Assembly (NCBI GenBank): GCA_951406725.2
Contig: OX597815.1
Location: 144,894,001-144,958,000, forward strand
Direction of reading: 5' to 3'
Length of the DNA stretch: 64,000 bases
Source: Octopus vulgaris
Taxonomy: Eukaryota
Shown: one piece after another, positions 48,101 through 54,100 of the stretch
Layout of the letters: each line of letters begins with the position of its first letter
Position numbering within the stretch: position 1 is the first letter of the stretch
The notes under the pieces: model-generated
Told to the model about the DNA's origin: nothing
Databases searched by the model: none
Seen by the model: the letters and a program-made list of their open reading frames with translations, nothing else
Position numbers and translations under genes: made by a program

Positions 48101-51100
48101 ACCCCAGTGCATAACTGGTACTTATTTAATCGACCCTGAAAGGATGAAAGCAAAGTCGACCTCGGCGGAATTTGAACTCAGAACGTAACGGCAGACGTTC
48201 TCTTGATCCCTGTGTTAATTTACTAAGCCTTTATTAGCTTTTGCTCATATGTATGACTTTAGCTACTCCGAGTTATTTCCCTTTGCTCCTTTTCGTTTAA
48301 GTTATGTAATTTATTATCTATGTTACCTACTTGAATGTATGTGTGAATGTTAAACGCTTTTAGGCTGCGATATTTCATTAAAAATCCCTTTTAAAAGTGT
48401 AAAGTATTAAGAAATATGCAGCATTCTTCAAAGCTAGGCAAAAACCAGTCAACCTGGAGGTGAACGGGAACAACGCTCAATGGCAGCATATACTTGATTC
48501 ACCTGCGAAGCAGATTTGAATTACTTGCCTGAAGTATAAACATTATCATCATCATCATCATCGTTTAACGTGCATTTTTACAGGCTGGCATGGGTTGGAC
48601 GGTTTGACTGAGGTCTCGATAGCCAGGAGGTTGCACCAGACTCCAATCTGATCTGGCAATGTTTCTGCAGCTGGATGGCCTGCCTAACGCCAACCACTCC
48701 AAAACCACTGGCACGGGAAACAGTCAGACTGCACTAGTATCAACCACGTTTGGATTGTGCTTTTTACTTTCCACTGGCACAGGAGCCAGTCAGGTGACCC
48801 TGGCATTGTTCATGTTCAGATAACATAAAATCTACTCAAATGACTTTTAGAGAAGTGCAACTGTAAACAAATATACACACCCACACAATTATATACATGG
48901 AAAAGTAGGCATAGATAATGGGCTTTATATATCATGCGATATGATACGCTTGGAAAAACCTGTTAAGTCAAGTAAAACCAATAATATAGTTGTGACCAGT
49001 GCCACCTAACTAGCCCCTTGCCAGTGACAACGTAAAATGCACTATCTAAATGTGGTCGATGCCAGGGCTGCCTGATTGGCTCCCATGCCAGTGGCATGTA
49101 AAAAGCAACATCTGAACATGGCCGATGCCAGTATCCCCTGACTGGCTCCCATGCCGGTGGCACGTAAAAAGCACCATCCAAATGTGTCGATGCCAGGGCT
49201 GCCTCACAGGCTCCTGTGCCAGTGGCATGTAAAAAGCACTCACTACACTCTTGGAGTGGTTGGCATTAGGAAGGGCATCCAACTGTTGAAACATTGCTAG
49301 ATCAGATTGGAGCCTGGTGCAGCCTCCTGGCTTGCCAGTCCCCAGTCAAACTGTTCAACCCATGCCAGCATGGAAAACGGACGTTAAATGATGATAATGA
49401 TGATGGTTTATGCATTTTTATGTATCAGTCTGTCGGTAATGCAGCCATGAGTTTACAAATTTGACTGGTGTTTGACTTAGACTTCCAATTCCAGCTTCAG
49501 ATTCTCTGGGGTACAATACCAATCACATTACCTTTCGTTAGCCTGGTGTATTTTATTTGCAGAGAGCTTAAGTATTTTGCCCAGAATATTCTGTTATATG
49601 TACACTAGCCTCTAGACCAGTGGTTCTCATTCAGGGTCCACATGACCCTTGGGGATCCATATCAGAGTTTGTGGTTAAAATTTATGTGCAATAAATTGCT
49701 TATACACAAAATATTTTAACAATTTTTAATACAATTCCAATAATCTATATATATAAAACTGAGCATGTGTGTCTGTGTGTGTGCGTGTCTATGTGTGCAT
49801 CTCTAAAACTCGAGAACTACCCAACCGATTTCATTTAAATTTGACACATGCCTTACTTAGGGTCCATAGAGTGTCATGGGCCAAAAGATTTTCAGCTTCT
49901 TGCCTAATGTGATCCCAGAGCAATCTATTATTACACTGTCTCAGTATTATATGTCAAAAGTGAAGCAATAACGTCTCTATTGTAATGTGAGATAACAGTT
50001 TCACTATTGATAGTGAAACTGTTATCTTATATTACATACATTCATATATATATATATATGTGTACATATAAATATGTGTGTGTGTGTGTGTGTATATATA
50101 TATATATATTAATTATAACTATGACAACAGAAGAATGAATGAGACCTCGATATTATGTAAATAGAGGGATTTATCTATAATACAGTATGTGACAATTAGT
50201 CGGTTGCCATAATAAAACTCAGAGTTTCGGATGTCAAGGCAGAAGTCTGCTCCGGCACCTTGTCAGTCAGCATTTTTGTTTGTCTTAATGACTGACGAGA
50301 TGCTGGAGCAGACTTCTGCCCTGACATCTGAAACTCTGTGTTTTATTATGGCAACCGACTAATTGTCACATATAGTATGTATATCTATATCTATCTATCT
50401 ATCTATATATATATTACTTTGAAGTGCCTAGCTCTGTGGGATTGTATACCATGGTGTTTCTTATTAAAGGGTTTCTAAGGTTCCCATCTTTTTCTTTTTA
50501 GATGAGGAGGGGTGGTGCAGGCAAGGTTGGTGTGGTTGTGGAAATCTGGTTTATAGGTGTATATAAAGAGGATCGAAGATTGATGTTGTGATGAATGGCT
50601 TGGGCCTGGTGGAGTTCTGGGTTCACAGCTAATTGAGGTGTACCCTTGATTTGGGAAGACTTGTTACATTCTCTCACATTAGAATTTGAAATCCAAACCA
50701 TCGTTGCAGAATGAGAAAAGGTGAAGGAATTGAATGGTATGGCATATTTAATGGCTTCTTTCAGTTCCTGCTTACTAAATCCATTTACAAGGCTTTGGTC
50801 TGCTCAGAGACACTTGCCCAAGGTGACGCACAGTTGGAATGAACTTGAAACCCTGAACCACACATACATGTCTCGCTCTTTTGTGTCATTTTTGTCATTT
50901 TGGATGTGGGGCTTAGTTTCTGACACCAGTTATCTCCCTTACTCTGGCTACCAGGTTTAAAAGAAGATAAATCTTAAATTTGAAGTATATTTGCCATCTC
51001 AATATGGCTAACCATTAAGGGTGGATGTTACTGTAGCTTGTAGCCCCAGGAGAACATCTCCAGCTGGCTATTGACATACTTTCTGTGCCTTATTGGTATT

Positions 51101-54100
51101 TGCAAAGGGAGGTCATCTGCAAATACCGATAAGGCACAGAAAGTGTGCCTAAAGCCAGCTGGAGATGTTTTCCTGGGGCTATAAGCTACAGTAACATCCA
51201 CCCTTAGTAGTTAGCCATATTGAGATGGCAAATATACTTCAGTGTCGTGCAGTTACTGTCTATACCTCGTTCAGAGATTTATTAAATTTTTGACTATTTT
51301 ATAGATTTTAACCATTGTTGATTTTTATGTAATTATTCTTGTTGTGTTTTGGGAGGACCATAACGCCAATAATAATAAACACACACACTGTGTATGTATT
51401 TATTATTATAGGTGTAATGACATTTCTAAGATACGAGTTTTGTTTTTTAACGCATGCATCCACATTGAGAATCTTGCAAACCAAATACAGAAACGAAACA
51501 CCGAATTATTATTATTATTATTATTATTATTATTATTATTATATTTGATTTTTTTTTTTTTTTCATTTTTAGTTCCACCCATGAGAGGAAAAGTAAGACA
51601 TATGTTATAACCAAACAGAGTAGATATTATCTGAAACATAATATTTTTACTGAGGTAAATAAAGAAATAACTTAGTCTTTTTATTGCTATTTCAGAACAT
51701 AACAATGTTTACAATTTTGTGTGCAACCATTATAATTTATAATCGAAATAGTTTACACCTATCAAAAATCAAAATCGAAATCGATCAACATCAATGGAAA
51801 TTGTAGCTGTGATACCAGTGCCGGTGGCACGTAAGAGAACCATCCGAACGTGGCCGTTGCCAGCGCCGCCCCGACTGGCCTCTGTGCCGGTGGCAAGTAA
51901 AAAGCACCATCCGATCGTGGCCGTTTGTCAGCCTCGTCTGGCACCTGTGCAGGTGGCATGTAAAAAGCACCCACTACACTCACAGAGTGGTTGGCATTAG
52001 GAAGGGCATCCAATTGTAGAAACACTGCCAGATCAGACTGGGCCTGGCGCAGCCTTCTGGCTTCCCAGACCTCAGTTGAACCGTCCAACCCATGCTAGCA
52101 TGGAAAATGGACGTTAAACAATGATGATGATAAAAGATTAAAGGTTTACTTTTTCTTCTCTCTGTTTAATCTACGAGGGTGAGTCAAAAAGTAATGCCAT
52201 TTTGTTTAGGACATGTATAATTACCAACACAGGAACATGTATCATACGTCAAAATGAAGCTGGTCCTTTATGGATCACATCCCTACTTCTCAATATAGTC
52301 ACCATTTCTCTCAACAGCAATGTTCCACCTTTGAATGAGAGCATATATCCCTGCCCCGTAAAATTCTGTTGACTGTTATTTGAGCCACTTCTTCACTGAA
52401 GTTTTCACTTCCTTGTCACTGGAATAATGTTTGCCTCTCAAACCCTCTTTCATGGGGCCAAAGAGATGATAGTCCAGTGACGAGGAAGTGAAAACTGTAG
52501 TGAACAAGTGGCTCAAAGAACAGTCAACAGAATTTTATGGGGTAGGGATACATGCTCTCATTTGAAGGTGGAACATTGCTATGAGAGAAACGGTGACCAT
52601 GTTGAAAAGTAGGGATGTAATCCATGGAGGACCAGCTTCATTTTGATGTATGATACATGTTCCTGTGTTGGTAATTATACCCGTCCTAAACAAAATGGCA
52701 TTACTTTTTGACTCGCCCTCGTATTAAAAATTATTTTTCAAACTTATTTTAATTTTATATCATCATCATTGTTTAACGTCCGCTTTCCATGCTGGTATGG
52801 GTTGGAGAGTTTAACCAGTTTACATTGTGTATTGAGTGCTTTTCGTGGCACCAGCAGCAATGAAGTCACCTAACTTATTTCAAGATTGAAATCCCCTTTG
52901 TCTGATTGGGGCTACAGTAGGGAGGGAGATGGCTTTATTAACCCTTTCATTACCAAACCGCCCAAAGCCGCCCGAAAAAAATTTTGGTTAATGTGACCAA
53001 ACCGCCCAAACCCGCCCGAATTTACCTATTCATATTTAAATGAGAATATCAGAGCAAATCTCTTTAGTACATTTGTGAAAACACGTATTATACTTCGTAA
53101 ACAGTTCAACTACAGTTTTGTACAATAATCGAAGTGTAATTTTAATTCCGTGAATTTTGGGAGATTTTTTTCCGAAATTTGTTCCTATTGTGTTTTCAAA
53201 ATTTGTAATTCTGACAAAAAATGGATACGAATTTCATTATATCAAGCAGCGAGTCAGAATTCGAAGGATTTTCTACTGAAGACCTTCATAAATCTAACTC
53301 TATGACTGAAAAAAAAAAGCATGTGGTATTTGATAATGAATCTGATGTTTCATTTTCCGAAAGTGAAAACAGTGAATCCGAGAGCTCCGACAGCAATAAA
53401 GAAAATGAATTGGCACCTGAATGGAGTGAAAATTTAAAAACTGTTTCTTTTGGTGATTTTTCTGAAGAAACTGGACCAAGCCACAGACTTTCCCAGGAGA
53501 GTAAAGCCTTAGGCTATTTCTATTTACTTTTTCGATTGAGCCTATTTGAAATCATTACGGCGGAAACGAACCGTTACGCTAAACGTAAACAAAGCGAAAG
53601 AAAGGATAGTTTGTGGTTTCCCACAACCTTAAATGAAATTAAGACTATTTTGCCATAAATATTATTATGGGTATCAGAAAGTTACCCAGAATAACAAATT
53701 CTATCGTAAAATTTTCTTGTATACCCAATTGAATATTAGCTAATAACCCATTTTCTATAGCGATGTTTGAACAAAATTTTAATAATTTTATATTTTGTTG
53801 AATTTACCTGTATCTACCCACAATTAGAGTCACTTTGTGACAAAAATTATAGTATAGAATTGGTTGAGAATATTTCATTAAATTATCTTCCAAAAATCAG
53901 ATTAATATATCAATAAATAAAAATGTTATAGTTGTTTAATGAAACCAGACTAAATTTATGATTACGTTAGAAATTAATTGAAACACATAAGGGGTGTAAT
54001 TTGGTCAGAAATATAGTAACGAAAGGGTTAAGAGATGAGTGGGGTTGAGTGAAAGAGTCAGATCAGAACAGGTTTTGGGGCTAATGCCGTTTTGCACCTC

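Follow-up and report, generated by a model that had tools for sequence, protein, structure and literature searches.

A head-to-head inverted insertion in intron 6 of Octopus vulgaris POLR3B, probably written by a Penelope-like element

The 64,000-nucleotide stretch of Octopus vulgaris DNA analyzed here (the window; GenBank assembly GCA_951406725.2, contig OX597815.1, positions 144,894,001 to 144,958,000) contains the start of the POLR3B gene (RNA polymerase III subunit RPC2) on the plus strand. The frame at 47053-47289 matches RPC2 (E 4e-32), and there are Pfam Rpb2 matches at four places. Two related insertions lie within the gene: an array of 360-bp units carrying hammerhead ribozymes, and a palindrome made from a diverged relative of that unit, which is the subject of this report. 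The exon candidates place the array in intron 1 and the palindrome in intron 6, as had been predicted from the sequence (Table 1).

The intron-6 palindrome is a head-to-head inverted, 5'-truncated insertion with a 41-nt tail on one arm. Its arms (50981-51104 and 51118-51241) are 124 nt long, 93% complementary and separated by a 13-nt spacer, in line with the original prediction of arms of about 124 bp. The spacer, 51105-51117, is counted here with the left arm, as other contigs of the family carry it as the continuation of that arm. A target-site duplication (TSD) of 8 bp encloses the insertion. Among contigs of four of the 24 sequencing runs listed, from four organisms, one of 394 nt (run X13, organism E, depth 16.9) connects 50976 to 51284 and has the TSD repeat only once, plus one extra A; such an empty site was seen for the intron-6 copy only. 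Given the TSD and the empty site, 50982-51281 is a true insertion, made at a staggered cut. The span first proposed, 50974..51289, thus located the insertion but included the TSD without naming it, and the first 3 nt of the right TSD copy may be microhomology overlapping the element end. In 3000 random pairs of AT-rich positions, a chance repeat of 8 bp was reached 15 times and one of 13 bp twice. An assembly fold-back artefact was ruled out, because the arms differ at 9 of 123 positions and contigs spanning the insertion junctions exist in three organisms (A, B and C).

Table 1. Features of the two insertions and of the POLR3B gene, in window coordinates
Feature	Position	Strand	Basis
Left copy of 8-bp TSD (TTAAATTT)	50974..50981	+	exact repeat; single at empty site
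Left arm, 5'-truncated copy ending at the tail-less site	50982..51117	-	arm comparison, homology to 360-bp unit
Right arm, 5'-truncated copy	51118..51240	+	arm comparison, homology to 360-bp unit
Blocks shared with 360-bp unit: CCTGGGGCTA...CAGTAAC (51189-51195), GCCA/TGGC hairpin (51214-51229)	51172..51229	+	homology; predicted pairing
41-nt tail on one arm only, holding GTTACTG (51252-51258) and the best-conserved block (33/36)	51241..51281	+	
Right copy of 8-bp TSD	51282..51289	+	exact repeat
Related insertion, intron 1	37327..39787	.	13-bp TSD 37327-39 / 39775-87; head-to-head tandem units
Type I hammerhead of one 360-bp unit	38471..38523	+	regex, core consensus; compared with the description in PMC4209133
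POLR3B (RPC2) exon 6, 5' of the palindrome	47079..47288	+	RPC2 match; exon 7 candidate from ~51573
POLR3B exon candidates	36071, 40587, 42347, ~44440, ~46155, 47079-47288, ~51573	+	

No hammerhead core (CTGA.GA) occurs on either strand of 50680-51600, which agrees with the earlier claim that the palindrome stops short of the ribozyme. Because the copy ends before the expected ribozyme position, the missing hammerhead does not settle the status of the subfamily. All three sense frames of both arms hold stops, and no reverse transcriptase (RT) domain was matched in the 148 of 176 candidate frames of the 30-64 kb region that were scanned with Pfam. The insertion itself shows no trace of a host function and is, we infer, a dead stump.

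In the intron-1 insertion, a stretch of 2.4 units on the minus strand has a 39-nt tail at its end, and one of 4.3 units on the plus strand has none. The inversion junction, at ~38212/38213, falls on a GACACC/GGTGTC hairpin of the 360-bp unit. Six hammerhead cores were found in the array by motif search. The hammerhead of the unit has a CUGACGA core, a 4-bp stem II, GAAA, and a 2-bp stem III in the palindromic ACCGGU, a metazoan type I form described in PMC4209133; in the copy listed in Table 1 the predicted cut falls after 38513. No Rfam hammerhead model matched even this array, and in the whole window there was no Rfam match at the gathering score, the palindromes giving only sub-threshold matches, mostly to microRNA hairpins. 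The units are ~99% alike, and the array is a young hammerhead retrozyme-type insertion with the full footprint of a Penelope-like element (PLE, discussed below). They carry recurring polymorphisms, out of register between the arms, suggesting heterogeneous templates. The hammerhead core at 37590 (minus strand) has an altered stem III palindrome.

That the two insertions are related and have two end sites in common is supported by sequence comparison. In local alignments to the 360-bp unit, the right arm with its extension scores 112 and the left arm 74, against maxima of 45 and 51, respectively, in 500 shuffles each; the best BLAST block has 33/36 identities (E 1e-8). Overall identity is 104/167 (62%). 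It is concentrated in blocks of 21/25, 16/18 and 33/36 and falls to 6/15 and 6/19 between them, which bears out the prediction of ordered common blocks with divergent sequence in between. The arrangement CAGTAAC...GTTACTG occurs eight times in the window, always inside the two insertions, against an expectation of 0.02.

Both insertions are bounded on either side by a 3' end of the unit, and their arms differ in length, by 41 nt in intron 6 and by 39 nt in the array, with an uncertainty of a few nt from microhomology. If microhomology is allowed for, the tail ends agree within ~1 nt. The tail-less ends lie 11-12 nt past AGATGGC in intron 6 and 17-19 nt past it in the array, and so coincide only within ~5-6 nt; the original prediction of equivalent end sites therefore stands for the tail ends and only approximately for the others. 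The chance that two random ends on a 360-nt unit match this closely is p ~6e-4, a rough and post-hoc figure. The TSDs measure 8 and 13 bp, and the flanks are 72-84% AT.

This layout is the published insertion footprint of endonuclease-bearing PLEs. In rotifer PLEs the pseudo-long terminal repeats (pLTRs) are inverted head-to-head, the TSD measures 8-10 bp and one end has a tail of 31 bp; these pLTRs are reported to suffice for moving other sequence in trans (PMC3846280). For PLEs generally, an inverted 5'-truncated copy and a tail of 30-40 bp have been described (PMC8557442). Insertions of endonuclease-containing PLEs (Arkhipova et al. 2013, PMC3846280; Craig et al. 2021, PMC8557442) are thus like those in the window in the head-to-head inverted 5'-truncated copy and the tail at one end only, as well as in a TSD of ~8-10 bp with an empty site, a palindromic junction and partial tandems. 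Unlike them, the window insertions have no open reading frame (ORF), such as the one for RT and a GIY-YIG endonuclease that marks an autonomous PLE, their tails are ~39-41 nt long, and the TSD of the array is 13 bp. An inverted 5'-truncated head-to-head copy, a tail at one end, a short TSD of variable length and an AT-rich target were found in both insertions, and tandem units of ~150-450 bp are present in the intron-1 array.

Purified protein of the anole Poseidon element PAc cuts and extends both strands of AT-rich DNA. It starts reverse transcription at two internal RNA sites 30-40 nt apart, the tail being the stretch between them, and genomic ends match these sites; the ribozyme is not needed for insertion in vitro (Frangieh et al. 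2024, PMC11167929). PAc and the window insertions are alike in their AT-rich targets and in two RT starts, putative ones in the window insertions, that lie 3' of the hammerhead and bracket the tail. The PAc start sites, however, lie in the ORF, one of them at +111-118, with the ribozyme cut at +26, whereas the window unit is non-coding and its putative start sites are 181 and 220 nt past the cut. PAc is also reported to start at non-homologous sites (PMC11167929), whereas the window junctions show 1-6 nt of possible microhomology. Since the layout is that of the PLE footprint, the earlier suggestion of a helper RT with fixed priming sites is likely right, and the helper was probably a PLE; the structure proposed to recruit it shows no covariation (see below). 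In our assessment the intron-6 palindrome was probably written by a PLE reverse transcriptase-endonuclease, with a non-coding relative of the 360-bp hammerhead repeat as its RNA template.

A long inverted repeat with an 8-bp TSD, as in hAT elements, might also be a miniature inverted-repeat transposable element or a fold-back DNA transposon, or else a short interspersed element mobilized by a long interspersed element (LINE) and inverted by twin priming. RTE, CR1 and hAT families are described as active in Octopus vulgaris (PMC13282606), and this counts for a DNA-transposon or LINE origin. Such an origin is nevertheless largely refuted and highly improbable, because the ends are asymmetric by 41 nt and the length of the TSD is variable: the related insertion has tandem units and a TSD of 13 bp instead of 8, so that neither symmetric terminal inverted repeats nor a fixed TSD length is found. 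Moreover, the insertion has a 3' end at either outer edge and carries one segment twice, once in each arm; in L1 twin priming, by contrast, the inverted 5' part is not duplicated. A tail of poly(A) or of a simple repeat is absent.

In the mechanism that we propose, a PLE protein would bind to the conserved RNA blocks that surround the two sites, a probable cis-signal that possibly includes a 7-8-bp helix around the hairpin. The enzyme would then nick both target strands 8 nt apart, and a separate cDNA would be primed by each nicked strand, one beginning at the tail end and the other at the tail-less site. Both cDNAs would stop early, before any ribozyme, and would be joined head-to-head, probably at a short microhomology. 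The intron-6 junction carries a TGCA palindrome, and in a single contig of run X3 the antisense strand would run on as TGCAAA, for a possible microhomology of 6 nt at this junction.

Instead of two primed cDNAs, the inverted arm might have arisen from a single cDNA that folded back at an internal hairpin and primed itself, as has been proposed for palindromic PLE junctions (PMC3846280). The positions of both junctions, at the GACACC/GGTGTC hairpin in the array and at TGCA in intron 6, would suit such an origin. The tail, however, is on the shorter arm of the array, and in the intron-6 element it extends past the mirror point, where plain self-copying therefore cannot supply it. The arms of the array, in addition, show 9 differences in ~870 nt, some of them at sites common to other units, and are not in-register copies of each other. 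This favors two cDNAs over one fold-back, although assembly error or later conversion could blur the comparison, and we consider self-priming unlikely.

The sequencing contigs show a highly repeated family with an edge at the tail end. In run X1 the summed contig depth, which is not a copy number, is ~14 in the flank, 1e4 to 2.5e5 inside the element and ~160 past 51285, and the same pattern is found in all four runs. The ends of contigs were compared among the 24 loose ends and 32 aligned pieces listed, of which there are 1099 and 18,700 more. Loose ends behind 51281 come from 32 contigs of run X13 (agreement 0.59) and those before 50983 from 17 contigs of run X4 (agreement 0.63), both with an AT-rich consensus; low agreement and AT-richness are expected of many different flanks. 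An edge at 50981-83 was seen in 13 of the 32 pieces, five of which go on for 26-584 unlike letters. Candidate end peaks across copies are represented by the two window insertions and by heterogeneous loose ends from one run each.

Among the variants listed, beside which there are 49 more, common ones bring the family consensus nearer to the 360-bp unit at some sites, e.g. 51197 T>C. The divergence from the 360-bp unit, together with a third tail variant in the contigs, supports the prediction of a diversified family with at least two subfamilies. What looks like this third variant appears as loose ends at 51039 and 51183 (11-18 contigs, runs X1 and X4), and it also ends in GAGATTTATT. Its bases after GTTACTGT are complementary to those upstream of CAGTAAC and would lengthen the helix to ~13-15 bp, assuming that its 5' strand resembles that of the intron-6 element.

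Predicted folds of the intron-6 element and of the 360-bp unit both hold a CAGUAAC/GUUACUG helix and a GCCA/UGGC hairpin, the hairpin with a pair probability of 0.8-1.0. Among the listed variants there are hints on the pairing: a common one at 51028 would retain a G-U pair or alter the partner strand, and those at 51218 and 51224 lie in or beside the hairpin loop. As modelled, a long-range helix around the hairpin is plausible. The prediction that both pairings are kept thus stands as regards the presence of the sequences and the possibility of pairing; neither shuffles nor covariation lend it support.

An internal promoter had been offered as another function for the conserved block, which would then have been retained for transcription and not as an RT-binding signal. 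PLE pLTRs can carry promoter motifs (PMC3846280), and the conservation seen here is one of primary sequence, without compensatory change. However, no RNA polymerase III A box or B box and no TATA match was found in the intron-6 element, and no tRNA in the window, so that the marks of a polymerase III SINE are lacking too; the box test used consensus patterns and covers a stump that lacks the 5' part of the full-length element. The best-conserved block, moreover, is the tail, coinciding with the insertion ends. We regard a promoter as a very unlikely explanation.

A PLE enzyme might also have used a different parent by the same insertion mechanism. The palindrome would then be the stump of a pLTR from an autonomous PLE, either the helper or a relative, in which the ORF begins at the ATG of AGATGGC, with the 360-bp retrozyme as a non-coding derivative. 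The pLTR of a rotifer PLE holds the first 12 codons, which the tail extends to 22 (PMC3846280), and 51225-51284 is open for 20 codons. A single X3 contig with a different inversion junction (51123 to 51121) implies a pyrimidine run ending in CAG upstream of 51117. This implied sequence resembles a 3' splice site more than stem I of the 360-bp unit, and PLE pLTRs can hold introns; it leaves room for the pLTR stump of an autonomous PLE or for a ribozyme-free subfamily. On the other hand, the frame of the ATG relative to the tail shifts by 2 nt from the intron-6 element to the 360-bp unit, and insertions of 1-2 nt at 51239-51242 are common in family contigs. A protein search with the 85-codon frame of the 360-bp unit gave 92 candidates, none at E<=1 and none a longer homologue, which is weak evidence. 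On balance we regard a coding parent as possible but somewhat unlikely.

Pattern scans found no loci in viral contigs and, with the three-block pattern, none in metagenomes. A looser tail pattern gave 19 loci, which were set aside as chance matches: all were without upstream homology (scores 18-47, against shuffles reaching ~50) and without a hammerhead.

Several observations weigh against the origin that we prefer, insertion of a non-coding retrozyme relative by a PLE enzyme. Only two full insertions were seen, and their tail-less ends are 5-6 nt apart. The contigs support common ends indirectly, since no alignment can run past the limits of the reference element. Neither the pattern scans nor the protein search with the 85-codon frame found an autonomous PLE with these ends. 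The link between the intron-6 subfamily and a ribozyme would follow from its resemblance to the 360-bp unit. As for the RNA structure, neither fold is more stable than shuffled sequence (z -0.52 for the intron-6 element and +0.39 for the 360-bp unit), the pair probability of the long helix is 0.97 in the intron-6 element but 0.2-0.39 in the 360-bp unit, and in the three window sequences covariation is absent, with 0 of 14 pairs changed on both sides.

The involvement of PLEs in retrozyme mobility has been suggested before. In 2020 it was proposed that retrozymes use PLEs, the mobilizing enzyme being left open (PMC7229834). A 2026 preprint argues that retrozymes are non-autonomous PLE derivatives, based on co-occurrence and pLTR homology in vertebrates; the words ‘tail’ and ‘octopus’ do not occur in its main text (bioRxiv 10.64898/2026.07.22.740005). 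The 360-bp unit is like the animal non-LTR retrozymes described by Cervera and de la Pena (2020, PMC7229834) in being tandem, non-coding and of typical size, with a type I hammerhead and a TSD of >4 bp, and PLE helpers have been proposed for these elements (PMC7229834; Li, Clavereau and Pollet 2026). The intron-6 copy, by contrast, has no ribozyme and is sub-monomeric. We class it as a retrozyme relative inserted in the PLE manner and do not count it among the retrozymes themselves.

The insertion architecture as such is already known, so that the surprise is limited. A hammerhead array and a diverged relative that both carry the PLE-specific insertion footprint are nonetheless more direct evidence than co-occurrence or pLTR homology, and they add junction-level support, in an invertebrate, to the published proposal that retrozymes are parasites of PLEs. 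Our literature search, with most subscription journals and the supplements of the 2026 preprint outside its scope, found no paper that makes the junction argument for retrozymes or describes an octopus retrozyme. Diverged subfamilies with short conserved blocks at the two ends also provide a comparison set for mapping recognition by PLE RTs.

A bolder reading, which we think unlikely to be correct, is that at least three diverged non-coding subfamilies share an RNA domain of ~110 nt, with a long-range helix enclosing a hairpin, which a dimeric Penelope RT would bind and which would set its two start sites, one for each nicked strand, and that the intron-6 subfamily is very high-copy and without a hammerhead. 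If this were true, subfamily comparison would define the minimal cis-signal for PLE mobilization, and the ribozyme would be a dispensable passenger.

Other repeats are found around the palindrome and elsewhere in the window. According to contig depth, the segments flanking the palindrome at 50785-50859 and 51460-51500 are pieces of two other very high-copy repeats. A POLR3B intron has a weak Pfam DDE_Tnp_1_7 match at 53215-53655 (E 0.0016, below the cut-off), possibly a piggyBac-like relic. Another long inverted pair, 14667-15127 / 16439-16898, aligns over 274 nt at 97% and 184 nt at 83%; its spacing is ~1.3-1.9 kb, and it might be a DNA transposon or a further inverted insertion. Two related CTGATGAAGGCTGG...GAAA motifs, at 55529 (minus) and 61854 (plus), are like minimal hammerhead cores of another dispersed repeat. 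Finally, many copies of an abundant dispersed repeat, with 66-bp tandem units inside and an ATC-repeat end, are spread over 13567-63389.

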